This document shows positions 11,181-63,230 of a stretch of DNA of 64,000 nucleotides, in pieces (the stretch's first letter is position 1; each line of letters begins with the position of its first letter). Below the pieces are notes generated by a model. It was not told where the DNA came from. It worked only from the letters and a program-made list of their open reading frames with translations, and made no database searches. A program made the position numbers and the translations under genes. This DNA is from Bacteroidia bacterium (GTDB lineage: Bacteria; Bacteroidota; Bacteroidia; 2-12-FULL-35-15), in NCBI GenBank assembly GCA_016786925.1, contig JAEUTU010000124.1:800-64799 (forward strand), given 5' to 3'.

Positions 11181-12665
11181 TTATCTCATTTTTTCGTGGA
11201 TCATCTTTAACTCGATCCATTGTTCAAAATCAAATTGCGGGTTAAGTGATTCTACGCCTATCTTTTTCTCCATCTGTTTCATTGCCGATAAAATTTGTGT
11301 TAAGCGAGTTTTCTTTGTGCCGGATCTTCTCTGCTCCGAAAGGATCTTGATCGCTTCTAACACCAAGGCTTGTTTTTTAAACTCCTTTTCATTGGCCATA
11401 AATCGTTTGGTAGAATTGTACTGATTTTCAAAGAAAAGATCTTCTTTCTCCAACAGTACGATCAAATAAAATAAACGTGTATTGATCTGTAGCTCTTTTC
11501 GCAAGTTGACGTCTTTCTCGTGGTTAAGAATTTTGTTCAACCACCTAATAGAAGCTTTAAAATCTTCGTTGCCCCAGAAAATAACAGACATCACAAAGAA
11601 TAGATCAAACAGCGAAGGGCTAAATTTAATATCCACTTTTTTAAGTTCCGGCTCCAATCGTTTTATTGTCAGGACTCCTTGTTCAAATTGCTCTGTTTTG
11701 TAGTATAGATACAGTTCGCTCTCGAATGTATTTAAGAAAACCTTTAAAGACAGTGCTGGATTTTTAATTTTATAGATCCCCGTAAATGCTTTCTGATGTT
11801 GGATCAAAGGCAAAATTCTATCATAATTCTCCAGAACAAACATCAGGTTAACCATGTTGTTGTTGTTTGTATGATAAATGTGCGGAAGGTCAACAATAAA
11901 CTGTTTTTCACTTTGCATAAGCACATTGATATCCTTATAGCAATTAAAACATTGTAAATATTTTTTCTGAACAGAATAAATGAGCCCCATCGCTGAGTGA
12001 TAATAATATTGTGCCCAAAAGCTATTATATTCTTTTTGCGGGGGATAATAATTGCTGATCTCTTTCAGTTGCTTTTCGATGTAGGCGTTGGTAACCTTTC
12101 CGTTGTAGATCTCAATTTGAATATTAAATGCGATCTGCATCAAAGCAGTTTGAATTCTTATTACTTCTAATATTCGAAGTTCTTCCGCAAAACTTTTGCG
12201 CAAGCCTTTTATGTCCTCGTCTTTAACATATACCAGGGTTTCCCAACGAATGATCAAAAAGAGAATAGAAAATTTTTCTAGTGCGTATGCTTCTTTTTTG
12301 GCCTTTTGGATCACTTTTCTACATTGCTCATAAAGGCCTTTGTTATAAAGCACTTCAATGCTCATTAATATATTGGAATACCTGGTCAGAAAGGTTCTGT
12401 CCTTATGAAAAGCATTGAGGCTTTCAAGAATATGGCTGTAGAGATAATTCTTTTCTGATGGCAAATGCTTCACAAACGTTTCGTGACTGAATACGCTTTT
12501 GATCTTTGCCTCATCATATTCCTTCTGCTTGTCAATTTCATCAAACAAATGAATGTAATTGTTGTTATGCCCGATCACATGCCGGGAAGAATATATTTTA
12601 AAATATCTCTTCTCGGACATGCTCAAATTTTTGATCAATTGATGGAGGTCGTCAGACGGTTTCAT
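11181..12665 (-). CDS. Hypothetical protein (494 aa, helical, no recognisable domain)
   Basis: Long ORF with ordinary coding composition and no family recognised. Confidence 0.5.
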   Translation of the reverse strand: MKPSDDLHQLIKNLSMSEKRYFKIYSSRHVIGHNNNYIHLFDEIDKQKEYDEAKIKSVFSHETFVKHLPSEKNYLYSHILESLNAFHKDRTFLTRYSNILMSIEVLYNKGLYEQCRKVIQKAKKEAYALEKFSILFLIIRWETLVYVKDEDIKGLRKSFAEELRILEVIRIQTALMQIAFNIQIEIYNGKVTNAYIEKQLKEISNYYPPQKEYNSFWAQYYYHSAMGLIYSVQKKYLQCFNCYKDINVLMQSEKQFIVDLPHIYHTNNNNMVNLMFVLENYDRILPLIQHQKAFTGIYKIKNPALSLKVFLNTFESELYLYYKTEQFEQGVLTIKRLEPELKKVDIKFSPSLFDLFFVMSVIFWGNEDFKASIRWLNKILNHEKDVNLRKELQINTRLFYLIVLLEKEDLFFENQYNSTKRFMANEKEFKKQALVLEAIKILSEQRRSGTKKTRLTQILSAMKQMEKKIGVESLNPQFDFEQWIELKMIHEKMR

Positions 12666-12841: not shown

Positions 12842-15800
12842 ATGGGACTACGACCAAATTTTTTATTCAAACTACTTTTTCTTCTTGCCTTTTCTACTAG
12901 TGCAATTGCCCAAAACAGTGCATTAGCAAAGTGGACAGCCAAGTACGATAAAACCAAAGCGTTCATTGAAAATAAGGGGCAGTTTCAGGTAAACGGTCTG
13001 GAAAACTACAACACTCCAGTTTTGTATGCAATGGATCATGGTGCTACAAAGATCTATTTCACCCAAAAAGGTTTAGTGTATAGCTTCTTAAAAGTTTGGC
13101 AAAAAGAAAATGATAAAGAAGAAAGAGAGCTACGCAAACAAAAGGGATTTGCTAGCGCTGAAGAGTTTAAAGCTTTTGAAGACGAGGGAAGAAAAGTAGA
13201 GCATGAAACAGATGTTATACCCATGTTTTTTGACGGAGCCAATGCTGGTGCACAAATTGTTGCAGAACAAGAAACAAAGGAATACCACTCCTACTCTTAC
13301 AAGGAAAACGGAAAAAGCAAAGATGTTTCCAATGTAAAAGCATTCAAAAAGATCACTTACAAGAACATTTATCCGAACATTGACATTGAATATACTTTCC
13401 ACCCTGAGTCGGGTATCAAATATGCTATTATCCTTCATCCGGGTGCTGACGCATCCATGATCAAGATGAAGTATGACAAAAGTATTTCTATCAACAAAAA
13501 CAACTTGCTTGTTCCAACTAAATTTGGTGACATCATTGACCATGCACCTCTAACTTTTTATGCCGACAATCACAATCAAGTTGTGAAATCATCTTTTATC
13601 ATTAAAGGAAAAACAGCAAGTTTTAAACTTGGAAAATACGATCATACAAAAACATTAATCATTGACCCTTGGACACAAACCCCTGCCTTTGCTACTGCTT
13701 GGGACTGTGTTTGGGAGTGCGAAAAAGACGGGGCGGGCAACGTGTATATCATTGGTGGTGTTACACCAATGCAACTGATTAAATATAATTCAACAGGTGT
13801 ATTACAATGGACCTACAACACCCCTTATGACACATCTGCTTGGCTCGGAACGTTCGCAACAGATAACCTGGGGAACTCATATGTTACTCAAGGCTCGGTT
13901 GCCGCAATTGTTAAAGTAAACAATGCCGGAGGTGTTGTTTGGAATAATGGTAGTCCCGGTGGAATTTTCACCTCCACAGAATTCTGGAATATTTCATTCA
14001 ACTGTGACCAATCTAAATTGGTTATTGGAGGAACTGGCGGCTTCCTCCCTCCTCTACCCTATATTTACGATGTTGATGTAAACAGTGGAAACATCACCGC
14101 AAGTGTTCAGGTAACTGGCGGACAGCTTTTCCCAACTCAGGAGGTTCGGTCGATCACAGCCTGCGGTAACGGAAAGTTTGCCTATCTGACACATGACTCG
14201 ATCGGCTATATTTCTCAGAATTTTACATTGTGTCCTAATGGACAAACAGCAGCATTTCATACGACTAACTCCTATGGCCTTAGCTATAAATGTGAAAATT
14301 GGAGAAAGGACAACTCCGGGATCATGGCTATCAGATATTACAATGGCTTTTTATACACTCACAAGGGTAACCAATTGCACAAACGCGATTTCGCTACCGG
14401 AGCAATTATAGCTACAGCAACAATTACCGGTGGTGGATTTGGAACAGGACAAGTGCAAAATAGCGGATTAGACATTGATGCATCCGGTAATGTGTATGCC
14501 GGATCGGGTAATGCAGTTATTAAATTCGACTCTAATCTAAACCAGCTAACATCCGTTGCTACAACCTATAAAGTATATGATGTGCATGTTTTAAGTGGAG
14601 GCGATGTTGTGATCTGTGGAACAACGGGAACATCAGGAACAACAGGCGCAAGAACAGGAACGGTACAAGTTGTAAATATGACCGCAGCTGCACCACTTTC
14701 ATTAACTTGTTGTGATGCTACCATTTGTAACCCAGGTGTTTTATGTTCGAGCGCTGCACCGGTTACATTAACCGTTGCAACTCCCGGTGGAACGTTCAGT
14801 GGTCCTGGCGTTAACCCATCAACCGGTGTATTTAACCCTGCAACAGCTGGCGTTGGAACCCATACGATCACTTACACACTTGCGTGTGGAAACGAAAGTA
14901 TTTCAATTGTTGTTTCTCCCTGTGCTACCCTAAATGTTTGTCAAGAAACAAATGGGACATTAACTGTTTCAAATGGTGTTGCACCTTACACTTGGCAGTA
15001 TTTTACTCCTGCATCAAGTTCTCCAATAACAAATTCTGCAACGTGTACTGCTTGCGGTGGAAGTTGGACACCAATAGTGAACATCTGTTTAGTGGGTGGT
15101 TTGCCTGCTACAACTTGCAACACTCCGGCATCGTGGACAACTTTCTCTACAAACACAAACTCAGGAACCCTGCCTCCGTCATTCCCTTCACAACCAATTC
15201 AAGTGACCGACAACGCAGGAACAGTAACAACAATAACAACCCTAACGGGTATTCAACCTTGTAACGCAACAGTTTGTCCTACGATCACCGTTACCGGAAC
15301 ACCAACAAACATTCAATGTGTTGGCCAAACCGGTTCAGCAACGGTTAGCGCCAGCGGCAGCACCACTTCTTACACCTACAATTGGATGCCGGGAAGTTTA
15401 ACCGGGGCTTCACAAACGGGATTGGCAGCAGGAACATACACCGTTACTGCTACAGATGGCAATAGCTGTACCGGAACAACAACAATAACCATTACTCAGC
15501 CCGCAAGTGCTGTTTCTGTTTCTATATCAAGTACCACCCCAACAGCGTGTTCAAGCGCAACGGGTGCAGCAACAGCTTCTGGTTCGGGCGGAACAGGCGC
15601 CATCACCTATAACTGGATGCCAGGAAATATTTCTGGAGCAACGATCAGCAATCAGGCAGCAGGAACGTATACGGTTACTGCTACCGATGCAAACGGATGT
15701 ACCGCAACAACAACAGCAACGATCACTCAAGCAGCAAATACTCTTGCCGCTTCTATTTCAGGAACAACACCTGCTACTTGCGGATCAAACAATGGATCAG

Positions 15801-17392
15801 CCACCGCCACCTCAACCGGTGGAGTTGGTACTGTTACTTATTCCTGGATGCCGGGAAGTTTAACAGGAGCAACCATCAGCAATCAAGCAGCAGGAACATA
15901 TACGGTTACGGCCACAGATGGTAATGGTTGTACATCAACAGCCACCGCTACAATTGCTAACAGTGGCGGACCAACAGCAAGCATTGCTTCACAAACAAAT
16001 ATCCTTTGCTTCGGCCAAAACACCGGAGGAGCAACAGCCGCCTCAACAGGGGGAACAGGAACAGTAACCTACACCTGGATGCCGGGAAGCTTGACGGGAG
16101 CAACACAAACAGGGCTGGCTGCAGGAACATATACCGTTACAGCATCTGATGGAGGAAGCTGTCCGGGCACAACAACTGTAACGATCACACAACCAACAAG
16201 TGCGGTTTCTGTTTCCATTACAGCAACCACACCAACAGCCTGCGGAAGTAACAATGGTGCTGCAACAGCAAGCGCTAGTGGTGGCACAGGAACAATCACG
16301 TATAATTGGATGCCGGGAAGTTTATCTGGTGCAAGCATTAGCAACCAGGCTGCAGGAACATATACCGTTACGGCAACTGACGCAAACGGATGCACTGCAA
16401 CAACAACCGCGACAATTGCTAGTAGTGGTGGACCAAGTGTTTCTATTACATCCCAAACAAATATTTTATGTAACGGAGGAAACAACGGAAGCGCAACTGC
16501 AAATGCTACGGGTGGAACGGGAACAATTACCTACTCTTGGAGTGGTGGCGCAGGAAGCAACCCTACGGCAAGTAATTTATCTGCCGGAACCTATACGGTA
16601 ACCGCTACCGATGGAACAGGCTGCTCTAACTCAACCACCGTAACGATCACCCAACCGTCCGCAATTGTTGTTTCTGTAAGCACCACACCTGCAACGTGTG
16701 GCAATAGCGATGGAACAGCAACGGTTAATGCCAGTGGCGGAAATGGGGTATTAAGTCCGGTTTGGAATACAAGCGCTACCAATAGCTCTATTACCGGTCT
16801 TTCTGCAGGAACATATTCTGTTACAATAACCGATGCAAGCGGTTGTACCGCAACAAGTAGTGGAAGTGTTGGAGTAACGGGAAGTTTAAGTGGTGTAAGC
16901 GCAGGAACAGATGTAACTATCCTTTCCGGAACAAACACGGTTTTAAATGGAACTGTGCCAACTGGAGCTACGATCTTATGGACGCCTTCAACAGGATTAA
17001 GTTGTACTACATGTGAGGACCCTACGGCTTCTCCGACACAAACAACAGTGTATGTAATTACTGCAAATCAAAACGGTTGTAGTGGTAGCGACACCGTAAT
17101 CGTTTTTGTGGATGTTGTTTGCGGAGAACTTTTTGTGCCGAATGCATTTTCTCCAAACGAAGATGGGCAGAATGATTTCCTATATGTAATGGGGAATTGC
17201 ATCACCAATTTAGAGTTCTTCGTTTACGACCGCTGGGGCGAAAAAGTGTTTGAAACAAAAGATGCTGCTTATGGCTGGGATGGAACATACAGAGGAAAGA
17301 AAATGGATGCTGCTGTTTTTGTTTATTATTTAACAGCAACAGTTAATGGACAAGAAGTAACAAAACAAGGAAACATTACATTAATTAAATAA
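12842..17392 (+). CDS. SprB-repeat cell-surface adhesin with T9SS type-B (gliding-motility, CHU_C) C-terminal sorting domain
   Basis: 1516 aa with a signal peptide. About 7 tandem 77-aa SprB-type repeats are present (W/N-W-M-P-G-S-L-T-G-A ... AAGTYTVTATD ... C). The C-terminus VPNAFSPNEDGQNDFLYV ... WDRWGEKVFE matches the type-B CTD. A PorP/SprF gene follows immediately. Confidence 0.85.
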   Translation: MGLRPNFLFKLLFLLAFSTSAIAQNSALAKWTAKYDKTKAFIENKGQFQVNGLENYNTPVLYAMDHGATKIYFTQKGLVYSFLKVWQKENDKEERELRKQKGFASAEEFKAFEDEGRKVEHETDVIPMFFDGANAGAQIVAEQETKEYHSYSYKENGKSKDVSNVKAFKKITYKNIYPNIDIEYTFHPESGIKYAIILHPGADASMIKMKYDKSISINKNNLLVPTKFGDIIDHAPLTFYADNHNQVVKSSFIIKGKTASFKLGKYDHTKTLIIDPWTQTPAFATAWDCVWECEKDGAGNVYIIGGVTPMQLIKYNSTGVLQWTYNTPYDTSAWLGTFATDNLGNSYVTQGSVAAIVKVNNAGGVVWNNGSPGGIFTSTEFWNISFNCDQSKLVIGGTGGFLPPLPYIYDVDVNSGNITASVQVTGGQLFPTQEVRSITACGNGKFAYLTHDSIGYISQNFTLCPNGQTAAFHTTNSYGLSYKCENWRKDNSGIMAIRYYNGFLYTHKGNQLHKRDFATGAIIATATITGGGFGTGQVQNSGLDIDASGNVYAGSGNAVIKFDSNLNQLTSVATTYKVYDVHVLSGGDVVICGTTGTSGTTGARTGTVQVVNMTAAAPLSLTCCDATICNPGVLCSSAAPVTLTVATPGGTFSGPGVNPSTGVFNPATAGVGTHTITYTLACGNESISIVVSPCATLNVCQETNGTLTVSNGVAPYTWQYFTPASSSPITNSATCTACGGSWTPIVNICLVGGLPATTCNTPASWTTFSTNTNSGTLPPSFPSQPIQVTDNAGTVTTITTLTGIQPCNATVCPTITVTGTPTNIQCVGQTGSATVSASGSTTSYTYNWMPGSLTGASQTGLAAGTYTVTATDGNSCTGTTTITITQPASAVSVSISSTTPTACSSATGAATASGSGGTGAITYNWMPGNISGATISNQAAGTYTVTATDANGCTATTTATITQAANTLAASISGTTPATCGSNNGSATATSTGGVGTVTYSWMPGSLTGATISNQAAGTYTVTATDGNGCTSTATATIANSGGPTASIASQTNILCFGQNTGGATAASTGGTGTVTYTWMPGSLTGATQTGLAAGTYTVTASDGGSCPGTTTVTITQPTSAVSVSITATTPTACGSNNGAATASASGGTGTITYNWMPGSLSGASISNQAAGTYTVTATDANGCTATTTATIASSGGPSVSITSQTNILCNGGNNGSATANATGGTGTITYSWSGGAGSNPTASNLSAGTYTVTATDGTGCSNSTTVTITQPSAIVVSVSTTPATCGNSDGTATVNASGGNGVLSPVWNTSATNSSITGLSAGTYSVTITDASGCTATSSGSVGVTGSLSGVSAGTDVTILSGTNTVLNGTVPTGATILWTPSTGLSCTTCEDPTASPTQTTVYVITANQNGCSGSDTVIVFVDVVCGELFVPNAFSPNEDGQNDFLYVMGNCITNLEFFVYDRWGEKVFETKDAAYGWDGTYRGKKMDAAVFVYYLTATVNGQEVTKQGNITLIK
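15290..16930 (+). repeat. Tandem array of ~231-bp (77-codon) in-frame repeats inside the SprB-like gene
   Basis: The NWMPGSL-encoding motif recurs at 15378, 15609, 15842, 16074, 16303 and 16535, a period of 229-233 bp. Confidence 0.85.
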
Positions 17393-17525
17393 TCATTTAA
17401 AACTTACACTCAACATGAAAACTACACAAATGATCTGCGTTGTTATTTTTTAATCAACGCTGAAAAGAAAAACTACTACTAAACTTTTTAAGATGTACAA
17501 TTTACACCTTGCAAATTTTTCAACG

Positions 17526-18551
17526 ATGAAACGGCTGACCTTTGCCATTGCGCTTTCTGCGATCTTTTTTTCAGCGGGAGCTCAGGACATTCACTTTTCT
17601 CAATTTGACGAAACGCCCGTGCAGTTAAACCCTGCTAACGTTGGTGTTCATCATGAATTAAGAGGGATTTTGAATTTTAAAAATCAATGGCAAAGTATTG
17701 GTTCTCCCTACAGAACATATGCCTTCTCTTTTGATACAAGATTGTTAAAAGAGAAAAAACACCACTTGGGTATTGGCATTGATTTTTTTAGTGACAAAGC
17801 CGGAGATGCGGCACTCGGTTCTAATCAAGTGAATCTTTCTGTTTCGGGAATTATTAATGTGAACGACAAAAGCATTTTCTCTGGAGGCATCATGGCCGGT
17901 TTCGGACAAAGAAGCATGAATGCATCAAAACTTACCTGGGGCAACCAGTATAACGGCATGACCTATGATGCCAATGCACCGACAGGAGAAAACAATTTAC
18001 CCGGAAGCTTCACCATGTTTGATTTAGGTGCCGGATTACAATACAGCTACGGAACAGACGAAGCATATATTTCTGCAAACAATGCGCGCAAAGTAAACAT
18101 TGGTGTTGCCATTTTTCATCCTCACCGCCCAGCTTACTCTTTTTATGGTGCTCCCGAAAGATTAAATATGAAGGTCGTTTTAAACGGTAACGCGTCTATT
18201 GGTATGCCTAACAGCAACCTCGTATTAAAACCTTCTTACATCGTTTTCATGCAAGGTGCTGCTACGGAAGTTAATCCCGGAATGACCTTTCAATATATTC
18301 TTCAAGAAGGATCAAAATATACGGGATTAAAAAAGTCCTCCGCATTTTCTTTGGGGGCATATTATCGTTTTCAAGATGCCTTTATTGCTATCGCAAAATT
18401 TGAATATTCAAACTATTCTATTGGATTTAGTTATGATGTCAATCTATCTAAATTACGTGTTGCTTCCTCTTCAAGAGGAGGCTTTGAGATCTCATTACGA
18501 TGGGTGTATCCATCCATGTTTGGGAACAAGCACTTTAAATCTCGTATTTAA
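17526..18551 (+). CDS. PorP/SprF family type IX secretion system membrane protein
   Basis: A signal peptide is followed by the QDIHFSQFDETPVQLNPANVG signature of PorP/SprF. The gene lies directly downstream of a type-B CTD cargo. The MKRL start at 17526 is preferred over 17493. Confidence 0.8.
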   Translation: MKRLTFAIALSAIFFSAGAQDIHFSQFDETPVQLNPANVGVHHELRGILNFKNQWQSIGSPYRTYAFSFDTRLLKEKKHHLGIGIDFFSDKAGDAALGSNQVNLSVSGIINVNDKSIFSGGIMAGFGQRSMNASKLTWGNQYNGMTYDANAPTGENNLPGSFTMFDLGAGLQYSYGTDEAYISANNARKVNIGVAIFHPHRPAYSFYGAPERLNMKVVLNGNASIGMPNSNLVLKPSYIVFMQGAATEVNPGMTFQYILQEGSKYTGLKKSSAFSLGAYYRFQDAFIAIAKFEYSNYSIGFSYDVNLSKLRVASSSRGGFEISLRWVYPSMFGNKHFKSRI

Positions 18552-18590
18552 GACTGTTTAGTGCGGTTGGGGGTTTAGTTTAATTGCAAA

Positions 18591-18630
18591 AAGCCCTCCG
18601 AAGGGGTTCGGGGGGCTTTCCCTTTTTTCT
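18591..18630 (+). terminator. Rho-independent terminator after PorP/SprF gene
   Basis: AAGCCCTCC..GGGGGGCTT forms a 9-bp stem and is followed by TTTCCCTTTTTTCT. Confidence 0.7.
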
Positions 18631-18717
18631 GAGATTTATCAGTTTTAAACACTTAGCTTCATTTTGCGTTTGTATTTTATTACATTTGTTTGTAAGTACA
18701 TTCTTTTTTATAACAAA

Positions 18718-20661
18718 ATGAGCATCAAAAAAATATCAATCATAACTGTTGTTATTGCTTTTGCAACAGGTTTTTATTTCCTGAATACAGCAACATCCAA
18801 AACAAGAAAAGACATGTTTCACACCGAAGAAGAAATAGCAGCCTTAAAAGACCGCTTTAAAAGAGCGCCTATTGAGGCTGGTGAATACTTCTTACACTCT
18901 TCTCATTGTTCCGGATGTCATGGATACGACTCTATTCAACAAGCAAATATTCTTGAAGATGGTAGCGATGTTAATTTAGTAGATCGCTGGCAAACGTCCA
19001 TGATGGCGTTGAGCGCAAAAGATCCACTATGGAGAGCAAAGGTAAGTCACGAGATAACTATTAATCCTGGTCATGCCGGTGAATTACAAAACAAATGTAC
19101 ATCCTGTCATGCGCCAATGGGTAGATATACAGCCATGTTCCATGGTCAGCAATACTATGGCATTAGTGATCTTGAAAATGACTCCCTTGGTTTAGACGGT
19201 GTTGCGTGTGGTTCTTGTCATGCCATTTCTCCTTCTGTTGGATCTACGTTTTCCGGTGAAATCCCATACGACACCAACCATGTTGAATATGGTCCATTTG
19301 GAAGTCCATTTACAGGGCCAATGGAGTTGTATGAAGGAATTACTCCTGTATTCAGCAACCATGTTAGTCAAGCCAGAATGTGCTCGTCTTGTCACACGCT
19401 GATCACCCAAACAGCAGACCTTTCAGGAAATCTAACCGGTGGTGAATTTGTTGAACAGGCAACTTATCACGAATATTTAAACTCCAGTTACAACGGGACA
19501 TCAACCAAATGCCAAAGCTGCCACATGCCAAAACTTTCTGAGCCTGTTGTTATTGCCAATGGAATTTTATCATTACAAGGCCGCTTTCCCTTTAACCAAC
19601 ACACTTTTGCCGGTGCCAATTATTTTATGCTGAATCTGATCAAAAACAACAAAACGGCTTTGGGTATTAATGCGGATGATGCAAAATTTGATTCAACACT
19701 TTTAGCAACATCAAACATGTTGAAATTTCAAAGCTTAGATATAAATCTCTTTTTAGACAGTACGATCAATGACACGGCATACTTTAGAGTAAAATTAAAA
19801 AACAAAACGGGTCACAAATTCCCTTCCGGCTACCCTTCAAGAAGAGCTGTTGTGCAATTTGTTGTAACAGGCTCTTCTAATGATACCATTTTTAGATCGG
19901 GGCTATTCAGCAATGATTACCGTGTGATTGGAGAAAGCAATCAGTTTGAGGTTCACCATGATGTCATCAACCAAAACAATGTTCCACAGATCTATGAAAT
20001 GGTAATGGGTGATGTCAACTCTAATGTTACAACCGTATTAGAAAGAGCAGCAAACCAATTAAAAGATAATCGTATTCCTCCCCTTGGCTTCACCACATCA
20101 CATAGCACGTACGATACAGTGAAGATCGTTGGAAGCGCTTACGCTGACCCTGATTTCAATAAGACAAATTCTGTTGAGGGCTCGGGAGAAGACTATGTTC
20201 ACTATCACGTTCCTTTAAATGGATTCAATGGGTCCATCATGGCAAAAACCAAAGTTTATTACCAATCTGTTCCGCCAAAATATTTGGATGAGATGTTTGC
20301 ATTAAACACAACGCCAATCAATACATTCAAAACAATGTTCCAGAATGCCGACCAAACCCCTTTCCTTGTTGGCGCAGATAGTTTAAGCAATCTAATCACA
20401 GGAGTTGCGAACCAAAATTCATCCGGAATAAATGTTTGGCCAACGATCTCAATGGATGGAAAAATCTTTGTTTCTGCGCCTTATGGCGAACTTATCAAAA
20501 ACATTGAAGTGTTTTCATCTTCAGGCGCAAAGGTAAATGCTATATACAACACAGCTTACCAGTCGGAATTCAACTTCTTCCTACCAAATGCAAGGGGGGT
20601 TTATTACATAAAAATTCGAACAGGAAACAAAATAATTACGAAAAAAGTTGTTAAATCATAA
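18718..20661 (+). CDS. Secreted multiheme (5x CxxCH) c-type cytochrome with T9SS type-A C-terminal sorting domain
   Basis: The five haem-binding motifs are HCSGCH, CTSCH, CGSCH, CSSCH and CQSCH. The C-terminal 75 aa (VWPTIS ... GVYYIKIRTGNKIITKKVVKS) match the Por secretion tail. The start at M 18718 follows the N-terminal TM/signal region. Confidence 0.75.
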   Translation: MSIKKISIITVVIAFATGFYFLNTATSKTRKDMFHTEEEIAALKDRFKRAPIEAGEYFLHSSHCSGCHGYDSIQQANILEDGSDVNLVDRWQTSMMALSAKDPLWRAKVSHEITINPGHAGELQNKCTSCHAPMGRYTAMFHGQQYYGISDLENDSLGLDGVACGSCHAISPSVGSTFSGEIPYDTNHVEYGPFGSPFTGPMELYEGITPVFSNHVSQARMCSSCHTLITQTADLSGNLTGGEFVEQATYHEYLNSSYNGTSTKCQSCHMPKLSEPVVIANGILSLQGRFPFNQHTFAGANYFMLNLIKNNKTALGINADDAKFDSTLLATSNMLKFQSLDINLFLDSTINDTAYFRVKLKNKTGHKFPSGYPSRRAVVQFVVTGSSNDTIFRSGLFSNDYRVIGESNQFEVHHDVINQNNVPQIYEMVMGDVNSNVTTVLERAANQLKDNRIPPLGFTTSHSTYDTVKIVGSAYADPDFNKTNSVEGSGEDYVHYHVPLNGFNGSIMAKTKVYYQSVPPKYLDEMFALNTTPINTFKTMFQNADQTPFLVGADSLSNLITGVANQNSSGINVWPTISMDGKIFVSAPYGELIKNIEVFSSSGAKVNAIYNTAYQSEFNFFLPNARGVYYIKIRTGNKIITKKVVKS

Positions 20662-20731: not shown

Positions 20732-23700
20732 ATGAATAAATTTACTTTTATGCGTTCTATTGCATTAGGCTCCGGGCTTGTGTTTGGAGTTGTTAATGCA
20801 AACGCACAATTTGGGTTTACCAACTCAAATTCCAGATTAACTCCCACTACTATGCGTAGTGGAAATTGTATAACAGTTGTTGATGTTAACAACGATGGGC
20901 TTGACGATATCGTTCGTATGGACGACTCCAGAGACCTATGGGTTGATCTTCAACAAAGAAATGGAAATTTCACTTCTTACAATGTAGGAAATGTTTCAGG
21001 CTCTAATGTTTGGGGTATGGCTGTTGCCGACTTTGACCACAATGGATGGAAAGATGTTGTAACCGGACCAAATGGCTCTGTTTATTTAGCAAAACTTTCC
21101 TGGAACGGTTCTGCCGTTGTCAAAACACAATCTACGCTTTCTAATTCTAACTTCTTTACTCAAAACATCACTTGTGGTGACTTTAATAATGATGGTTGGG
21201 ATGATGTGTATGTTTGTGATGATAACGCATATGCTAAAGTATACATGAATGATGGTGCAGGAAACCTACAATTCTTGGCACACTCTACAACATCCATGAC
21301 TATTGGAACGGGATCAAAAAGCTTTACTATTCAAACGGGCCTAGCCTTCACTGTTGGTCAAACCGTTAAAGTTGGTTACGATGGAACAAAATACATGACA
21401 GGAACGGTTACTTCCTACAACTCCGGAACAGGAGCAATGGTGGTGAATGTAACTTCAGTTGTGGGGTCCGGAACATTCCCAACATGGTCTGTTCATTCAA
21501 ATATTGTATTTAACCACCAACTGAGCACAACAACCTATGGTGGCGACCCTGCCGACTCTGGTAATTACGGAAGTGCTTGGGTTGATTTTGACAATGATGG
21601 CGACTTAGATTTTTATGTGGCTCATTGTCGTCAGGCATCTACAAGTGTTACCGACCTAAGAAGAAAAGACCGTTTGTTTGTAAATGATGGGAACGGAAAC
21701 TTCACAGACATGGCTTCTGCACATGGAATTGAGGCTGGTGACTACAATCAGACCTGGACAGGAAGCTTTGGTGATATTGACAATGATGGCGACTTTGATC
21801 TTTTGGTTACTAACCATGATATTGCCAGCCAGATCTTTGAAAATGATGGAACAGGGAACTATACCGACATTACTCCTACAACCGGATTCTCAACAACCGG
21901 AGCGGGAACTCAACCAATCGAGTCCTATTTTGAAGACTTTGATAACGATGGTTTTGTAGACATCTTTGTTACCGGCTCTAATTTTGTTCTTTACAAAAAC
22001 AACGGAAACAAAACATTCTCTTTGGTAGGAAATGCAGGAATGTCACAAACCGGAGGAATGGTTTCATTTGCTGTTGGCGATTTGAACCATGATGGTTTCT
22101 CTGATATATTTGCTTCTTATGGCGATATCTACAACAGTCCTTCAGCCTCTACTAATGATGTTCTTTATTTGAACAACAAAAACGCAAATCACTTTATTAC
22201 ATTTGCTTTAACAGGAACCGTTAGTAATCACGATGCTATTGGAGCGCGCGTTACCATCTTTGGTGCTTTTGGAACCCAAATTCGTGAAGTTCGTGCCGGA
22301 GAAAGCTATGGTACCGTTAACTCATTCAACCTACACTTTGGTTTAGGAGCAAACACAACAATTGACTCTGCACGAATCGATTGGCCATCAGGCAATACAA
22401 CCAACTTCGGTTCTTTAAATGCTGATCAATTTGTATCTGTTGTTGAGGGCACTTGCAGCATCACAAACAATACAATTCCCGGCCCATACAATTTATGTAC
22501 AGGTCAGTCATTAACATTAACTGCTAATGGCGGCTTTGCTTCTTACAACTGGAATACAGGGGCTACAACACAGTCTGTTACAACAAGCACAACAGGAAAC
22601 TTTAATGTTATGGTAACAAACGGTGCTTGTTCAAATGTTTCTCCTTCAGTTAGTGTTCAGCTAAACCCTGACGAAACACCAAGCGTAACACAATCGGGCA
22701 GCAACTCTTGTCAAGGAACAATTACACTTACAAGCTCTACTGCTGCTGGATATACTTGGTCCGGACCGGGTGGATTCACTTCAACATCACAATCTATTAA
22801 TCCTCCTGTTTCAGGTAATTATTCCGTTACAATTCAAGGGTTTTGTGCTACATTCACTTCTCCGGCATACAATGCTGTAGTTAGCGCAGCTCCGGCACCA
22901 ACAGGTGTTGACCAATCTAGCCCAACACCAACATCATTCAACCTAAACGCTACCGGCACCAACTCATCAAACATTTCTTGGTACGACCAAGCAACAGGTG
23001 GAACATTATTAGGAACCGGTGCAAACTATACTACTCCTGTGATCAGCACAACAACAAATTATTTTGTTGAAGAAAGCTTCACTTATGCAAGCGCTCCACA
23101 AACAACTGGACAGCTGTACCACACAGGAGCAAGCAACTATAACACCAGTTTGAATGGCGGTGTTGATTTTACCGTAATAGCACCATGTACATTAAACACT
23201 GTTAAGGTTTATTCTTCAACTGCTGGAGCACGTAAAATTTTACTTAAAAATTCAGTTGGGGCTAATATTGACTCGGTTATTGTTAATATTCCTATAGACA
23301 CAAGCGTTGTTACTTTAAATCTTGCTTTAACTCCAGGAACAGGCTACCGCTTAACAACAGACCAAACAACCAATCAAACTAATTTTGGTGGTATTTCGCC
23401 TGCTCTAAGAAGAAGTCAATCTGGGGCTGCTTATCCATACTCTTTAAGTGGTTTAATTAACATCACAAATGGTTGGACAGGATCCGCTTCTACAACCAAC
23501 GCTTACTATTACTTCTACGACTGGAAAGTACAAGGAGCACCAATGACATGTATCAGCGATAGAGATACTGTAACTGCTGCTATCAACACTGCAACAGGAA
23601 TAGACAATGCATCATTAAACAACGCAATCGCTATTTATCCTAACCCGGCAAATGCTTCCGTTAATGTTAAATTTGAGTCTGCACTTGCTGCCGGTGCTCA

Positions 23701-23872
23701 GATCAACATTACTGATATTGCTGGTAGAGTGATCTTGGCAAACAATGTTCAAAATGTGAACCAAGGACAAATTGTTTCATTAAACATTGAAAACATTAAT
23801 GCAGGAACTTACTTCATAACTGTAAGATCTGAAAACAAAAACACGGTTCAAAAACTGATCATTACCAAATAA
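20732..23872 (+). CDS. CRTAC1-family protein (FG-GAP/VCBS repeats + ASPIC/UnbV domain) with T9SS C-terminal sorting domain
   Basis: Repeated D.DGD.D motifs are present (VDFDNDGDLDFYVAH, GDIDNDGDFDLLVTNH). An UnbV_ASPIC-like segment (IGARVTIFGAFGTQIREVRAGESYGT) follows, and the C-terminus AIYPNPANASVNV ... GTYFITVRS is a Por CTD. Confidence 0.75.
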   Translation: MNKFTFMRSIALGSGLVFGVVNANAQFGFTNSNSRLTPTTMRSGNCITVVDVNNDGLDDIVRMDDSRDLWVDLQQRNGNFTSYNVGNVSGSNVWGMAVADFDHNGWKDVVTGPNGSVYLAKLSWNGSAVVKTQSTLSNSNFFTQNITCGDFNNDGWDDVYVCDDNAYAKVYMNDGAGNLQFLAHSTTSMTIGTGSKSFTIQTGLAFTVGQTVKVGYDGTKYMTGTVTSYNSGTGAMVVNVTSVVGSGTFPTWSVHSNIVFNHQLSTTTYGGDPADSGNYGSAWVDFDNDGDLDFYVAHCRQASTSVTDLRRKDRLFVNDGNGNFTDMASAHGIEAGDYNQTWTGSFGDIDNDGDFDLLVTNHDIASQIFENDGTGNYTDITPTTGFSTTGAGTQPIESYFEDFDNDGFVDIFVTGSNFVLYKNNGNKTFSLVGNAGMSQTGGMVSFAVGDLNHDGFSDIFASYGDIYNSPSASTNDVLYLNNKNANHFITFALTGTVSNHDAIGARVTIFGAFGTQIREVRAGESYGTVNSFNLHFGLGANTTIDSARIDWPSGNTTNFGSLNADQFVSVVEGTCSITNNTIPGPYNLCTGQSLTLTANGGFASYNWNTGATTQSVTTSTTGNFNVMVTNGACSNVSPSVSVQLNPDETPSVTQSGSNSCQGTITLTSSTAAGYTWSGPGGFTSTSQSINPPVSGNYSVTIQGFCATFTSPAYNAVVSAAPAPTGVDQSSPTPTSFNLNATGTNSSNISWYDQATGGTLLGTGANYTTPVISTTTNYFVEESFTYASAPQTTGQLYHTGASNYNTSLNGGVDFTVIAPCTLNTVKVYSSTAGARKILLKNSVGANIDSVIVNIPIDTSVVTLNLALTPGTGYRLTTDQTTNQTNFGGISPALRRSQSGAAYPYSLSGLINITNGWTGSASTTNAYYYFYDWKVQGAPMTCISDRDTVTAAINTATGIDNASLNNAIAIYPNPANASVNVKFESALAAGAQINITDIAGRVILANNVQNVNQGQIVSLNIENINAGTYFITVRSENKNTVQKLIITK

Positions 23873-26135: not shown

Positions 26136-26684
26136 TTGAATTTCGAAGAGATATATACTGCTCATAGCAAAATGGTTTTTAACCTTGCGCTTCAATATGT
26201 ACAAAACATTGAAGATGCGGAGGAAATAACACAAGATGTTTTTGTTTCTATTCATCAATCTTATTCCGGCTTCAAAGAAGAGTCCTCCATCAAAACCTGG
26301 ATATACCGGATAACGATCAATAAATCGCTTGATCATATCCGCTCCAAAAAAAGGAAAAAAAGATTCGCCTTCTTTACCAGTCTTTTTTTTGAAGATAACA
26401 ATACGCTAAAGCACGAGCCCTCCTCGTTCGACCACCCGGGTGTTCTGATGGAAGACAAAGAGTCTATCAAGGCTATTTTTCAAAAAATAAATGAGCTGCC
26501 CGACAATCAGAAAACAGCGCTCATCTTACACAAAATAGAACAAAAAACACAGGCCGAAGTGGGAGAGATAATGAACCTAAGCACCAAAGCGGTTGAATCG
26601 CTTATTCAACGAGCAAAGGCTGGTCTATTAAAAAAAATAGACAACACCGAGGGGAATGATTCAAAAAATCGTCTAAACCAATAA
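26136..26684 (+). CDS. RNA polymerase ECF-type sigma-70 factor
   Basis: Sigma70 region 2 (FNLALQYVQNIEDAEEITQDVFV, WIYRITIN) and region 4 (ELPDNQKTALILHKIEQKTQAEVGEIMNLSTKAVESLIQRA) are recognisable. The candidate start at 26136 is TTG. An anti-sigma gene follows. Confidence 0.85.
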   Translation: MNFEEIYTAHSKMVFNLALQYVQNIEDAEEITQDVFVSIHQSYSGFKEESSIKTWIYRITINKSLDHIRSKKRKKRFAFFTSLFFEDNNTLKHEPSSFDHPGVLMEDKESIKAIFQKINELPDNQKTALILHKIEQKTQAEVGEIMNLSTKAVESLIQRAKAGLLKKIDNTEGNDSKNRLNQ

Positions 26685-26691
26685 TTGAGAC

Positions 26692-26946
26692 ATGAATATA
26701 GATGATCTACATAAAATAAAAGCCGTTGACGTTTCTCCTTTTTTATATACGAGAATACAACAACGCATAAAGGACAGCGCAACAGACCTTGTCCCAAAAA
26801 AGCTTGTTTGGACCGTTAGCCTTTCTATGTTTGCAATTCTTTTTGTTAATGCCGGAGCCATTGTTTGGGTGGCAAAAAAGAATCATAAAACAAATACTGT
26901 TGTTGAATCAATGGGTTTGATGCCCGACAATGAATTATACAAATGA
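26692..26946 (+). CDS. Putative anti-sigma factor (small single-pass membrane protein)
   Basis: 84 aa with one TM helix (VWTVSLSMFAILFVNAGAIVWVA), lying directly after the ECF sigma and overlapping the next gene by 4 nt. Confidence 0.5.
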   Translation: MNIDDLHKIKAVDVSPFLYTRIQQRIKDSATDLVPKKLVWTVSLSMFAILFVNAGAIVWVAKKNHKTNTVVESMGLMPDNELYK

Positions 26947-27407
26947 ACTCTAAAAACCTATTAACAATAACCACCATCGGCCTTTTCATAACAAATATTG
27001 TTTTGTTGTGGTTCCTGGTATCGGGCCGTCCACAGCATCATGGGCCGGCAGGAGGCGGAGGACCCAGAAATATCATTATTGAAAAACTGAAGTTTGACAA
27101 GGCACAACAAGTCGCGTTTGAGTCTTTGATTCAGAAACACAGACAAGATATCGATCGTTCGCAAGCAAAAATGATCGAAATAAAAAACAAGCTTTATACA
27201 ACACTTACCAATACCGACAATGTTGTTAAAGACTCTTTGGTTATTAAGCTTGGTAACCTTCAAAAAGAAATTGAAACGATCCACTACAATCACTTTGTAG
27301 ATATCAAAAACCTTTGTAAACCGGAACAAAAGCCACTTTTCGAGGAGCTTAGTCATGAAATAGCAAGGCTGTTTGCGCCTCCACATCCACCTAAACACAA
27401 ACCCTAG
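26943..27407 (+). CDS. Periplasmic Spy/CpxP-like (LTxxQ-motif) heavy-metal/envelope-stress protein
   Basis: An N-terminal TM/signal region is followed by a helical protein with repeated xxxQ motifs (KFDKAQQ, ESLIQKHRQ) and a His/Pro-rich tail (PPHPPKHKP). Confidence 0.5.
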   Translation: MNSKNLLTITTIGLFITNIVLLWFLVSGRPQHHGPAGGGGPRNIIIEKLKFDKAQQVAFESLIQKHRQDIDRSQAKMIEIKNKLYTTLTNTDNVVKDSLVIKLGNLQKEIETIHYNHFVDIKNLCKPEQKPLFEELSHEIARLFAPPHPPKHKP

Positions 27408-27409
27408 TC

Positions 27410-28108
27410 TTGTTAAGGCTCTTTTTTGCTTTCATAAACGTCATTGCTTTTATCTCCTTTGCTTCTGCTCAAAAGGGGGGCGCAGTTTCTATTACCTTCC
27501 AGCACCAGTATAATGGTAAAATGTTTAACGTATCAGACTCCGGGGCAACAATAAACACAACAAGCGATCTCAAGATAAACGTTTTAAAATATTATGTCTC
27601 TCACATTCGATTGTATTCCAATGGAACGTTAGTGGCTCAGGATCCCGCTTTAGCACACCTGATCGATGCCTCAGACACCAGCTCTAGCACCTGCATAATT
27701 CCCGTTCACAAAAATGTTGTTTATGATGAAATCCGGTTTGATCTTGGAATAGATAGTACAACCAATGTTTCCGGGGTTCTTGGTGGCGACCTGGATCCGA
27801 CAAAAGGCATGTATTGGACCTGGCAAAGTGGATATATTAATTTCAAGCTGGAAGGAAATGCCCAACAATGTACAAACTCAAAGAAAGAATTCATTTTTCA
27901 CATTGGCGGTTACGCCCATCCATACGGCTGTATCCGTGAGGTCTCATTGAAAACAGGTGGGGCCTCAAAAGCCATTGTTGTGCTGGAGCTTAAAACCCTT
28001 TTCGACCACATTCAACTCGACAAAGAAGCAAACATTATGTCACCTTCTCAAAGTGCTGTTTCCTTTTCAAAACTTCTACAAAAGAGCTTTATTGTTAAAG
28101 AACCATGA
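27410..28108 (+). CDS. MbnP-family periplasmic copper-binding protein
   Basis: A signal peptide is followed by the pattern KYYVSHIRLY ... MYWTWQSGYINFKLEG ... HIGGY, which I recognise as MbnP. It is immediately followed by, and overlaps, a di-haem peroxidase gene, the usual MbnH partner. Confidence 0.6.
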   Translation: MLRLFFAFINVIAFISFASAQKGGAVSITFQHQYNGKMFNVSDSGATINTTSDLKINVLKYYVSHIRLYSNGTLVAQDPALAHLIDASDTSSSTCIIPVHKNVVYDEIRFDLGIDSTTNVSGVLGGDLDPTKGMYWTWQSGYINFKLEGNAQQCTNSKKEFIFHIGGYAHPYGCIREVSLKTGGASKAIVVLELKTLFDHIQLDKEANIMSPSQSAVSFSKLLQKSFIVKEP

Positions 28109-29139
28109 AAACCAAAGTCTTTGTGTTCCTTTTTTTATTGATCGTTTTAGCGGGGTTTCACACCGTTAACGACTCTCTTTTTGAAGTACCGAAAGGCTGG
28201 CCCAAACCTCAGCATGACTTTCTAAAAAAACCTTTGTTAAAAGAAACTGTTGAGCTTGGAAGGGCTTTGTTTTATGATCAAATTCTATCCAGAAATAATA
28301 GCGTTTCCTGCGCCAGCTGTCACTCTCAATATACAGCATTCACACATGTTGACCATGCACTAAGCCACGGTATAGACGACCGGATCGGGAAAAGAAATTC
28401 TCCGGCTCTTATGAACCTTGCTTGGCAGAAGTCATTCATGTGGGACGGGGCTGTCAACCATATTGAGGTACAAGCCCTTGCTCCCATTAGCAATCCACTA
28501 GAAATGGATGAGAACATTTCCTCGGTAGTAAAAAAATTAAACGCTACTGTTCAATATCAAAAGCTTTTCTACAAAGCCTTTGGCGACTCAGCCATCACAG
28601 GAGAAAGAACGTTAAAGGCGATCTCACAATTCATGCTAACGCTTGTGTCATCCAATTCGAAATACGATAGCGTTATGAGAAAAGAAACTCATTTCAACGC
28701 TCAAGAAAACAGAGGCTACAACTTATTCAAAAAACACTGTTCTTCTTGTCATACAGAACCGTTATTTACAAATGATCGTTTTGAAAACAACGGACTCCCT
28801 GTTGATACAAGCCTTATGGATAAAGGGCGGTATGCGATCACACAAAATCCCAAAGACTCTCTTTTGTTTAAAGTGCCGACACTTCGAAACATTGAATTCT
28901 CTTATCCCTATATGCATGATGGGAGATTTAAAAAATTATCGGATGTACTAAAACACTATAGCAACGGGATAACACACAGCCCAACGCTTTCTAAAGAGCT
29001 GTTGGGCCCAATAGTTATGACATCCGAAGAACGCGTAGATATCATTGCTTTTCTGTTAACATTAACAGACAAAACATTTCTTTTTGACAAGCGCTTTTCA
29101 TACCCCAAAACTTTTTTCTCTGATCCTGCGAAGGATTAA
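28105..29139 (+). CDS. Di-haem cytochrome c peroxidase (MbnH-like)
   Basis: Two CxxCH motifs (CASCH, CSSCH) sit in the CCP/MauG family arrangement, with the conserved PTLRNI and Y.HDG motifs. Confidence 0.8.
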   Translation: MKTKVFVFLFLLIVLAGFHTVNDSLFEVPKGWPKPQHDFLKKPLLKETVELGRALFYDQILSRNNSVSCASCHSQYTAFTHVDHALSHGIDDRIGKRNSPALMNLAWQKSFMWDGAVNHIEVQALAPISNPLEMDENISSVVKKLNATVQYQKLFYKAFGDSAITGERTLKAISQFMLTLVSSNSKYDSVMRKETHFNAQENRGYNLFKKHCSSCHTEPLFTNDRFENNGLPVDTSLMDKGRYAITQNPKDSLLFKVPTLRNIEFSYPYMHDGRFKKLSDVLKHYSNGITHSPTLSKELLGPIVMTSEERVDIIAFLLTLTDKTFLFDKRFSYPKTFFSDPAKD

Positions 29140-29180
29140 TAAAAGAGAATCGTCTATACACTAAAACCAACATTATAAAA

Positions 29181-30536
29181 ATGAAATTAAAAGGACTTTT
29201 CTTGGCTGCCATGATCACGAACGCTTTGGCTCAGGCGCAAACCAACCCCGCAATTACCGGGTGGATGCAAAACACCACCAATATCATGGGTCGCCACTAT
29301 GTAAGCGGCAACTCCACACCAATCAACGACAATGTATTGGCGAATGTTCAAACCGTTCAATATTCAACAAGCTGGGTATATGTTTCAACGAAGGGAATTC
29401 CGGCTTATATAACAGGGCCTTTTTTAGATGGAAACCCATCTTTGGCAAGCAACCAGAATGCGATCTTTAAGTTTCCTTTGAATCCGGTTCAAAACACAGG
29501 AACGCCAACAGCAACAACAATGGGCAACATTGGTGTTTTTGTGAATGGTGTTGCTCTTTTTGATTATCGTGATGGTGTTTCCTGGAAAAACTCAACCGGT
29601 GCACTTGCCGGAGGACCGCTTGGTGGAACCGGTGATGGGGTTTGGAATAGAGATGCTGTGGTAGCAGAAAAACCGGGATTTGACTGTTCAAAGGGTCATC
29701 CGGCAATGGGAAATTACCATCATCACCAAAATCCAAGCGCTTACAAGCTGGATCAGAACGTGATTTCCACCATTTGTAATCTATACGATTCTGATGGACT
29801 TTACGTGATCGATAGCACTCAACACTCGCCACTTATTGGATTTGCCTATGATGGATTTCCGATATATGGTGCCTATGGATACAAGAATGCAGACGGAACC
29901 GGTGGGATCGTGAGGATGAAATCGAGCTACAGTTTAAGAAGCATATCTGTTAGAACACACTATTTTGATGGCACAGATGTAACCGATGGACCAGCTGTTA
30001 ATGGCACATACCCACTGGGGTATTTCAAAGAAGATTATCAATTCACTTCGCCAACTGCCTCTGATTATTTAGATGAGCACAACGGTCGTTTTTGTGTTAC
30101 TCCCGAGTATCCAGCAGGTATCTATTGCTATTTTGCTACGGTTGATGCCAATTGGAATTCTGCATATCCGTATGCTGTCGGGCCAACATTTTATGGCGTA
30201 AAAACAGCTGCTAAGGTCACATCTATTTCGGAAAGCACAACAACCTACACCGCTCCTGCAACGAGTATTTCTGAGGCTACAAACGATTCATTTGAAGTAA
30301 ATGTTTATCCTAATCCGGCCAATGATTTTATTGCAGTTCAGATCAACGGAATGAACAAAGAAAATTTACTTGTTGAACTTTTTGATGTTACAGGAAAATT
30401 GGTTCAAAGCAATTATTTGTATCAAGGTACAACCATTGCTTTCTTTGATACACAGCGACTTTACAGCGGAGTTTATTTTATTAAACTACATGGATCGGCA
30501 GGAGTTTGCAGCCGGAAAGTAATTATCCAAAAATAA
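29181..30536 (+). CDS. YHYH-domain protein with T9SS C-terminal sorting domain
   Basis: The HPAMGNYHHHQNPSAY and YDGFPIYGAYGY motifs indicate a YHYH family protein. The C-terminus VYPNPANDFIAVQ ... GVYFIKL matches the Por CTD. Confidence 0.7.
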   Translation: MKLKGLFLAAMITNALAQAQTNPAITGWMQNTTNIMGRHYVSGNSTPINDNVLANVQTVQYSTSWVYVSTKGIPAYITGPFLDGNPSLASNQNAIFKFPLNPVQNTGTPTATTMGNIGVFVNGVALFDYRDGVSWKNSTGALAGGPLGGTGDGVWNRDAVVAEKPGFDCSKGHPAMGNYHHHQNPSAYKLDQNVISTICNLYDSDGLYVIDSTQHSPLIGFAYDGFPIYGAYGYKNADGTGGIVRMKSSYSLRSISVRTHYFDGTDVTDGPAVNGTYPLGYFKEDYQFTSPTASDYLDEHNGRFCVTPEYPAGIYCYFATVDANWNSAYPYAVGPTFYGVKTAAKVTSISESTTTYTAPATSISEATNDSFEVNVYPNPANDFIAVQINGMNKENLLVELFDVTGKLVQSNYLYQGTTIAFFDTQRLYSGVYFIKLHGSAGVCSRKVIIQK

Positions 30537-62202: not shown

Positions 62203-62205
62203 AAT

Positions 62206-63228: not shown

Positions 63229-63230
63229 AA

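Follow-up and report, generated by a model that had tools for sequence, protein, structure and literature searches.

We report that a 64,000-nucleotide stretch of DNA from a Bacteroidia bacterium (GenBank assembly GCA_016786925.1, contig JAEUTU010000124.1, positions 800 to 64,799 of the forward strand; hereafter the window, with position 1 its first letter) carries the gene of a pentahaem c-type cytochrome that ends in a type IX secretion system (T9SS) sorting domain. Our overall reading, to which we assign a probability of roughly 0.55, is that the protein is exported by the T9SS as a holo-cytochrome and acts outside the cell as a redox module together with a CRTAC1-like propeller protein encoded directly downstream. 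Its two parts are not equally firm: in the identity and export of the cytochrome we have high confidence, and an extracellular redox role coupled to the partner is put forward tentatively, at somewhat less than even odds. The fold, the secretion tag and the database sequence were known already; what is new is a large and conserved T9SS-tagged multihaem family, together with its active-site signature and its propeller partner.

The open reading frame (ORF) extends exactly from the ATG at 18718 to the TAA at 20659-20661 on the forward strand (18718..20661) and encodes 647 amino acids (aa) plus the stop; the product is identical to NCBI MBL7890653.1, for which the database name is only 'T9SS type A sorting domain-containing protein'. 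A longer ORF beginning at a TTG at 18664 is unlikely, since the orthologues begin at the methionine of MSIKK or MKIKK. Five CxxCH motifs are present, at residues 64, 127, 164, 222 and 265 (nucleotides 18907-18921, 19096-19110, 19207-19221, 19381-19395 and 19510-19524), and these account for all ten cysteines of the protein. From its own amino acid composition 0.005 such motifs would be expected, two or more appeared in 0 of 20,000 shuffles, and none of the five varies in alignments of 29, 45 or 147 homologues (147/147 in the largest). A search of the cytochrome sequence for the CxxCK motif gave none, and the only other ORF in the window with CxxCH is that of an MbnH-like di-haem enzyme (2 motifs). 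According to the sequence, the 147-sequence alignment and an AlphaFold model, the motifs lie in an alpha-helical five-haem domain (aa ~50-300; 18865..19617, forward strand), which is followed by an immunoglobulin (Ig)-like beta-sandwich with insertions (aa ~335-560; 19720..20397, forward strand), as delineated from alignments, the AlphaFold model, and fold and profile matches. It is this Ig-like domain that holds the most conserved motifs of the family, GHKFPSGYPSRR (aa 365-376; 19810-19845, forward strand) and KDNRIPP (aa 449-455; 20062-20082, forward strand); among the 150 representatives listed GHK[FL]P[ST]G is found in most and KDNR[IL]xP in nearly all.

The two ends of the protein carry signals for export. 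A putative signal sequence (aa 1-27; 18718..18798, forward strand) was read by eye from the sequence and the alignment and consists of the basic start MSIKK, a helix of hydrophobic residues spanning aa 3-25 and, as a conserved site of small residues, LN(S/T)A(x)S with K on its far side; a lipobox cysteine was looked for at the N-terminus and none was found. At the other end, residues ~572-647 (20431..20658, forward strand) form a type A T9SS C-terminal sorting domain (CTD) that ends in GVYYIKIRTGNKIITKKVVKS. The TIGR04183 model matches aa 588-646 with 33.6 bits relative to a cut-off of 23 and also matches 29 of the 29 aligned orthologues (E<=1e-3), the Pfam family Por_Secre_tail (PF18962) scores 19.5, which is under its cut-off of 27, and the typical terminal motifs GxY...K-x-x-K are found. 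In the first of two AlphaFold models the last ~75 residues are predicted to fold into a compact Ig-like beta-sandwich with a predicted local distance difference test (pLDDT) value of ~80-87. Foldseek aligns this predicted domain with the CTDs of translocon-bound substrates (8GL8_D, template modelling [TM] score 0.81 and root mean square deviation 2.0 A; 8GL6_D, 0.80; 8GLK_D, 0.80) and with the RgpB CTD (7PQ4, TM 0.61). We conclude that the T9SS sorting domain is a true one of type A and, judging from the sequence, that export across the outer membrane is the most likely fate of the protein. None of the core T9SS genes sprA/sov, porV and gldKLMN was found within the 64-kb window, and a GldH-like gene lies near the cytochrome orthologue in one other locus (L001). 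A PorP/SprF-family gene and five more CTD-bearing cargo genes (one type B and four type A) in the window make it probable that the host uses the T9SS, and a cytochrome c maturation system is implied because a second c-type haem protein, the MbnH-like enzyme, is encoded there. An earlier reading of the window, made from the sequence only (the sequence-only reading), had proposed a pentahaem cytochrome that is exported and surface-anchored by way of a Por sorting domain. Its haem count and its sorting domain are borne out by the data above, and the predicted export is likely, given a CTD and an N-terminal signal; surface anchoring is one of two possibilities, as a type A CTD does not distinguish attachment to the surface from release.

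To relate the cytochrome to known folds, family profiles were needed, since searches with single sequences (the whole protein against PDB sequences, and the Ig-like region alone) returned nothing relevant. The Pfam matches are marginal (Cytochrome_C7, 31.4 bits; MtrC/MtrF domain II/IV, 30.9 bits with a cut-off of 30). A profile of close orthologues finds 5ZE8, that is cytochrome c552 (LPC) of Thermochromatium tepidum, and, weakly, MccSep, and with a profile of 45 diverse relatives (hmmsearch) the E values are 1.6e-12 for 5ZE8 and 3e-8 for MccSep (9WT8). The first AlphaFold model was built from 29 close orthologues and has a pLDDT of 55 in the haem domain; compared over the whole protein, it matched for the most part generic tandems of Ig/FN3 domains, and only its CTD and its 5ZE8 matches were used. 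The second model (aa 30-570, based on 147 sequences from several phyla) has a pLDDT of 92.2 and a predicted TM score of 0.91 and places the beta-sandwich at aa ~340-560, and its sole significant match among PDB structures is 5ZE8 (E 2e-17; TM 0.69 normalised to the 385-residue target and 0.50 to the query) at an identity of ~14%. The architecture is thus that of the c552(LPC)/MccSep type, a five-haem helical cap followed by an Ig-like domain, as described for MccSep (bioRxiv 10.1101/2025.11.18.688581). Matches to the NrfH, DmsE and nanowire families are weak and far under their cut-offs, and these candidates were set aside.

The relation to MccSep, a multihaem selenoprotein polysulfide reductase, directs attention to one region of the fold. 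In MccSep the Ig-domain loop G-H-S-I-P-D-G-U325-P-T-P-N-R reaches the distal side of haem 2, which is ligated by Cys239, and both Sec325 and Cys239 are essential for polysulfide reduction; its Y-shaped five-haem core is reported to superimpose on those of other catalytic multihaem cytochromes, as shown for c552 and MccA (bioRxiv 10.1101/2025.11.18.688581). The family signature GH-x-[FL]-P-x-G-x-P-x-R aligns with this Sec325-bearing loop at the haem-2 active site: the MccSep loop (GHSIPDG-U-PTPNR) is homologous to GHKFPSG-Y-PSRR of our cytochrome, and the corresponding c552 loop, PHAMPTGAPFR, likewise aligns with GHKFPSGYPSRR. His366, Lys367, Arg375 and Arg376 in the loop are each present in 147 of 147 aligned sequences, as are Glu246 and Gln247, which belong to the stretch from which MccSep draws its distal Cys239. 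A polysulfide reductase of the MccSep type can be rejected: the selenocysteine position is Tyr372 in our protein (I, Y, F or L, and never C, in the 147 relatives), there is no equivalent of Cys239, and the MccSep/ExtKL equivalog model NF040886 gives 19.8 bits relative to a cut-off of 250.

The same alignment offers candidates for the distal haem ligands. The distal histidine of the motif W..S.HA.S in c552 and MccSep is replaced by methionine in our family (SMMA); Met96 is conserved in 146 of 147 sequences (Met95/96 being near-invariant as a pair), Met202 and Met270 are near-invariant, and His295, His366 and His413 are each found in all 147. Because of the SMMA replacement and the near-invariant Met202, one or two His/Met haems are expected, and these would have a more positive potential than a bis-His respiratory wire; with such haems an oxidoreductase or electron relay in oxic habitats would fit better than a mineral-respiring terminal reductase. 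Met96, Met202, His295, His366 and His413 may together be five candidate distal ligands, in which case no haem would be permanently open.

The partner gene lies 70 nucleotides 3' of the cytochrome gene (20732..23872, forward strand) and encodes a CRTAC1-like protein of 1046 aa with a signal peptide, an FG-GAP/VCBS propeller, UnbV_ASPIC and Ig_7 domains and a type A CTD (FG-GAP_3, E 1.4e-41 in 6 stretches; UnbV_ASPIC, E 7.6e-19; Ig_7; Por_Secre_tail; TIGR04183, 47.5 bits). A CRTAC1-like gene is found directly 3' of the cytochrome gene in three other genomes, each with different upstream genes, and an FG-GAP/ASPIC gene is the only recurrent neighbour of the family, being present at 38 of 85 loci compared with 9 for the cluster that ranks second. 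At 37 of 84 loci the two genes lie side by side, with the FG-GAP/ASPIC gene downstream on the same strand at 30, convergent at 4 and upstream at 3, and where at least 3 kb is available on both sides (n=50) it occurs within the flank in 24, of which 23 are adjacent. Nearly every orthologue at ~50% identity or above shows the pairing, and its distribution in Flavobacteriales and Saprospiraceae is patchy. The sequence-only reading, according to which the gene stands alone, has to be revised here, since the next gene downstream is its single conserved neighbour. The remaining neighbour clusters, which were judged by eye from the sequences and without domain scans, resemble housekeeping genes particular to a lineage or additional secreted proteins, and a quinol dehydrogenase, a porin or a periplasmic cytochrome was sought around the 85 Bacteroidota loci and 6 distant-relative loci, where none recurs. 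An association of such propellers with c-type haem proteins has a precedent: in Planctomycetota and others, CRTAC1-family FG-GAP genes are reported to lie between haem c genes that have a relationship to subunits of hydrazine synthase (PMC12758564).

On the other side of the cytochrome gene, the upstream unit consists of a gene for a SprB-repeat/DUF7948 protein of 1516 aa with a type B CTD (12842-17392, forward strand) and its PorP/SprF partner (17493-18551, forward strand), a pair that is not conserved at other cytochrome loci. A terminator-like hairpin with a 13-bp stem and a T-run (18590..18628, forward strand) follows the PorP/SprF gene and sets the cytochrome apart from the SprB-like/PorP pair. 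A candidate Bacteroidota-type -7 promoter box, TACATTTG (consensus TAnnTTTG; 18681..18688, forward strand), is situated 30 nucleotides 5' of the ATG, and as the motif is not enriched across the window (52 found vs 83 expected) it counts as weak evidence for a promoter. In the 70-nucleotide gap between the cytochrome and the downstream gene a scan revealed neither a -7 box nor a terminator-like site.

Far from being uncommon for Bacteroidota, as had been supposed from the sequence, the cytochrome belongs to a large family. At E<=1e-3 it is matched by 3401 clusters (90% identity), nearly all of ~645-655 aa, and in a 50%-identity library by 4023 representative proteins, 821 of them at E<=1e-30. 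One peptide pattern finds at least 599 stretches in species-representative GTDB genomes, of which at least 595 were confirmed as loci. The best 80 of these at least 595 loci are all from Bacteroidota metagenome-assembled genomes (MAGs) from lakes, activated sludge, soil and groundwater and include Bacteroidia, Chitinophagales, Saprospiraceae, Lewinellaceae, Flavobacteriales and Crocinitomicaceae; a second search, starting from a Lewinellaceae member, gave the same host picture, and the best 120 matches in each of three protein searches, taken together with the best 80 GTDB loci, are essentially all MAGs. Relatives that bear a CTD and share ~42-48% identity with a Deferrisomatales member are present in Ignavibacteriota, Kapaibacteria and Calditrichota, and a ~500-aa core that lacks the CTD and has a plain or lipoprotein-type signal peptide is present in other phyla, e.g. 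Deferrisomatales and Desulfobacterales. The pentahaem core is also found fused to an N-terminal beta-propeller of the pyrroloquinoline quinone-type glucose/sorbosone dehydrogenase (GSDH) family (P0183, P0233 and P0238, one of which adds a carbohydrate-binding-type F5/8 type C domain), to a C-terminal class I cytochrome c (P0193) and to a metallo-beta-lactamase-fold domain (P0259). Read most simply, such a fused core would be the electron-accepting or electron-relaying module of a propeller dehydrogenase, or the partner of a high-potential cytochrome c pool, and the domain make-up of these fusions suggests electron-relay roles for the pentahaem core. Among the 8 million open papers and preprints searched we found none that combines the T9SS with multihaem cytochromes, and we know of no c-type cytochrome that has been described as T9SS cargo.

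On these grounds we propose the following route. The Sec pathway would export the cytochrome by way of its N-terminal signal sequence, and the periplasmic cytochrome c maturation system would attach the five haems covalently. The T9SS would then recognise the type A CTD on the folded holo-protein and move it across the outer membrane, whereupon the CTD would be removed and the cytochrome either released or attached to the surface. Outside the cell it would form a redox module with the CRTAC1-like FG-GAP/ASPIC beta-propeller protein that is encoded beside it and would be secreted along with it. If MccSep is taken as a guide, electrons could pass, in one direction or the other, through a branched chain of haems that links a solvent-exposed haem to the pocket of haem 2 at the Ig-like interface. 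That interface between haem 2 and the Ig loop would be the business end of the protein, and it holds the family's most conserved residues (the six listed above).

Several observations weigh against this proposal. At 26 of the 50 Bacteroidota loci with room on both sides there is no partner within 7 kb, and it is likewise not beside the six distant relatives examined (Ignavibacterium, Deferrisomatales and others), in which the cytochrome gene is an orphan; because the partner gene is lacking at about half of the roomy loci and beside these relatives, the pairing is restricted to a clade, and the cytochrome evidently does not need a neighbouring partner gene in order to work. To our knowledge FG-GAP/ASPIC proteins have no known redox cofactor, and we know of no function for the closest solved relative, c552 (LPC), either. 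With five candidate distal ligands the cytochrome could be a pure electron carrier without an open catalytic haem, the CTD-bearing members of the family are known from sequence alone, and no source of electrons for a protein beyond the outer membrane is evident from the locus.

Extracellular electron transfer (EET) and metal or mineral redox chemistry, as put forward in the sequence-only reading, represent one possibility and not the best supported one. The cytochrome would then be a surface terminal reductase (or oxidase) for iron or manganese minerals, humics or electrodes, comparable to MtrC/OmcA in Shewanella, and a multihaem cytochrome with an export tag, as well as the marginal Pfam match to MtrC/MtrF domain II/IV, would agree with this. 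So would the CTD-bearing relatives in Ignavibacteriota and Calditrichota, given that Ignavibacteria have been linked to metal reduction and anode biofilms (PMC7399161). However, a porin-cytochrome conduit, a periplasmic shuttle or a quinol dehydrogenase gene was not found alongside the cytochrome gene in the window or in any locus that we read, and besides the FG-GAP gene the recurrent neighbours are housekeeping genes. Identity with MtrC/OmcA is rejected, as TIGR03507 scores 13.5 bits vs 209.3, there are five haems and not ten, and MtrC (6QYC) reaches only E ~0.02-0.07 and TM 0.16-0.18, hence <0.2, in the fold search with the second model. The c552/MccSep-like fold, the probable His/Met haems, and hosts from oxic lakes, sludge and soil also speak against a respiratory role of this kind, which we regard as improbable.

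We give the same low weight to a second alternative, in which the protein is an extracellular haem peroxidase or protein modifier; a surface peroxidase or oxidoreductase had also been raised in the sequence-only reading and may still apply. Here the haem-2 pocket, with Glu246, Gln247 and the basic residues of the Ig loop, would activate H2O2 or O2, the other haems would store or relay oxidising equivalents, and the target may be a small or polymeric extracellular substrate or, in parallel to MauG and MbnH, the FG-GAP/ASPIC protein itself. An enzyme driven by an oxidant needs no cellular supply of electrons, which would solve the problem posed by the topology, and the pairing of the gene with one specific protein partner is as expected. 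Distal Glu and Gln residues are used by bacterial di-haem peroxidases and by MauG, and the invariant Glu-Gln of our family, in the segment of the MccSep distal Cys239, aligns with the Gln-His of NrfA; moreover, an MbnP/MbnH pair together with a T9SS cargo gene is encoded 6 kb away, so that the same logic would already exist in this organism. Yet in sequence and fold the likeness to the cytochrome c peroxidase (CCP)/MauG family is limited to haem motifs of a generic kind (E 0.25-0.64), that to NrfA is weak (E 0.01-0.05), the five conserved candidate ligands may leave no haem open, and an adjacent partner is lacking in many family members.

A soluble electron shuttle or ferric reductase, released for iron acquisition and acting in the cell's vicinity on Fe(III) chelates or other metals, has a slight chance of being correct. 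Type A CTD cargo of Flavobacterium is often released and not anchored, and the gene is monocistronic or bicistronic, and thus self-contained, in most lineages; against this, iron-regulated, TonB-dependent and siderophore genes are not recurrent alongside it, and there is no obvious route by which a released protein would be re-reduced. Slighter still is the chance that the cytochrome stays in the periplasm with a vestigial or non-functional Ig-like CTD, as MccSep (a periplasmic protein) and presumably the many CTD-less relatives with plain or lipoprotein signal peptides in other phyla do, for although Por_Secre_tail is under threshold here, TIGR04183 is above its curated cut-off and matches every aligned orthologue, the CTD has been kept across Bacteroidota, Ignavibacteriota and Calditrichota, and it has the terminal motifs and, at TM ~0.8, the fold of functional CTDs.

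If export of the haem-loaded protein as proposed is true, the T9SS can carry large, cofactor-loaded redox proteins, and abundant Bacteroidota of fresh water, soil and wastewater (Saprospiraceae, Chitinophagales and Flavobacteriales) would have an unrecognised extracellular capacity for redox chemistry, with metals, humics, reactive oxygen or polymers as its targets; bacterial CRTAC1-like propellers, which are enigmatic, would gain their first functional context. As a wider generalisation, bacteria of the Fibrobacterota-Chlorobiota-Bacteroidota group might, in a widespread and hitherto undescribed manner, use the T9SS to export multihaem cytochromes that are fully folded and loaded with haem, accompanied in many Bacteroidota by a dedicated CRTAC1-like propeller, as an extracellular oxidoreductase or electron relay that does without a porin-cytochrome conduit, and CRTAC1 propellers might be general partners of c-type haem enzymes, as beside the hydrazine-synthase-like genes; in this broad form we consider the idea unlikely, if possible.

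Other features of the window include a high density of T9SS cargo, with six genes in 64 kb. Among these are the gene of a 306-aa protein with little beyond its CTD (42283-43203, reverse strand) and that of a 1489-aa SprB/PKD/BNR protein with a type A CTD (49401-53870, forward strand). A cluster at 26136-30536 (forward strand) comprises an extracytoplasmic function (ECF) sigma factor gene (26136-26684), a 154-aa ORF without family (26943-27407), an MbnP-like gene (27410-28108), the gene of the MbnH-family di-haem CCP/MauG enzyme (28105-29139, overlapping that of MbnP by 4 nucleotides) and the gene of a YHYH protein with a type A CTD (29181-30536); its gene content is suggestive of an MbnPH module for copper handling, the third member of which would leave by way of the T9SS. 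An Xre/MbcA/ParS-type antitoxin gene is followed by a RES-domain toxin gene at 45138-46114 (forward strand), which constitutes a type II toxin-antitoxin pair. Near the window end, 61097-63968 (reverse strand) holds four tightly packed genes, for Nmad2 (nucleotide modification associated domain 2), a ThsB-like TIR protein, HMUDK_hel (5-hmdU DNA kinase helical domain) and SLOG cluster2, the last of them close to the end itself, and in composition this segment resembles a nucleotide-modification or conflict (defence) island. Two reverse-strand ORFs, of 494 aa (11181-12665) and 388 aa (46295-47461), match no Pfam family at the thresholds used.

Compared with known systems, our cytochrome is similar in concept only to MtrC/OmcA of Shewanella, which are also multihaem cytochromes outside a Gram-negative cell. 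In MtrC and OmcA ten haems form a staggered cross, and the two are lipoproteins that use the type II system for export and are wired to MtrAB, whereas ours has five haems, another fold and a T9SS tag, lacks a lipobox and has no MtrAB-like genes nearby. With the MauG/preMADH and MbnH/MbnP pairs it shares the placement of a c-type haem protein gene beside the gene of one specific non-haem partner, and the MbnP/MbnH pair in the window is itself an example of a c-type haem enzyme gene beside the gene of the protein acted on; there is, however, no homology to MauG or MbnH, as the CCP/MauG profile values given above indicate. As for NrfA, to which MccA, ONR and OTR are related as catalytic multihaem cytochromes, a stretch of our family in the segment of haems 4-5, (E)Q..Y.EW....CxxCHMP, aligns weakly in a sub-profile with QHPEYETW...CxDCHMP of NrfA, which we take to be its active-site/Ca2+ region, with the His presumably the catalytic one. 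Some relatives score above the cut-off of the Pfam NrfA family PF02335 over the Glu-Gln stretch; PF02335 gave no match to our cytochrome at E<=1. In contrast to NrfA, ours has no CxxCK haem, the His of QHP is not conserved and the rest of the fold is unrelated, and the weak Glu-Gln likeness is better treated as a lead than as a result.

The closest similarities are to c552 and MccSep. In cytochrome c552 (5ZE8), too, the N-terminal helical domain contains five CxxCH motifs, and the Ig-like domain after it bears an H-x-x-P-T-G-x-P-x-R loop. The c552 protein differs in that it comes from a purple sulphur bacterium and has no T9SS domain, our core being ~150 aa bigger, with the extra KDNR[IL]xP region; in addition, the distal His of SMHAKS in c552 is replaced by Met96, and an Ala of c552 by Lys367. 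MccSep (ExtKL, GSU2937-2936 of Geobacter sulfurreducens; 9WT8) likewise combines five haems with a C-terminal Ig-like domain and is periplasmic and tetrameric, whereas our cytochrome carries a T9SS CTD. The family described here thus represents a third, very large branch of the c552/MccSep fold, with a different active-site make-up.

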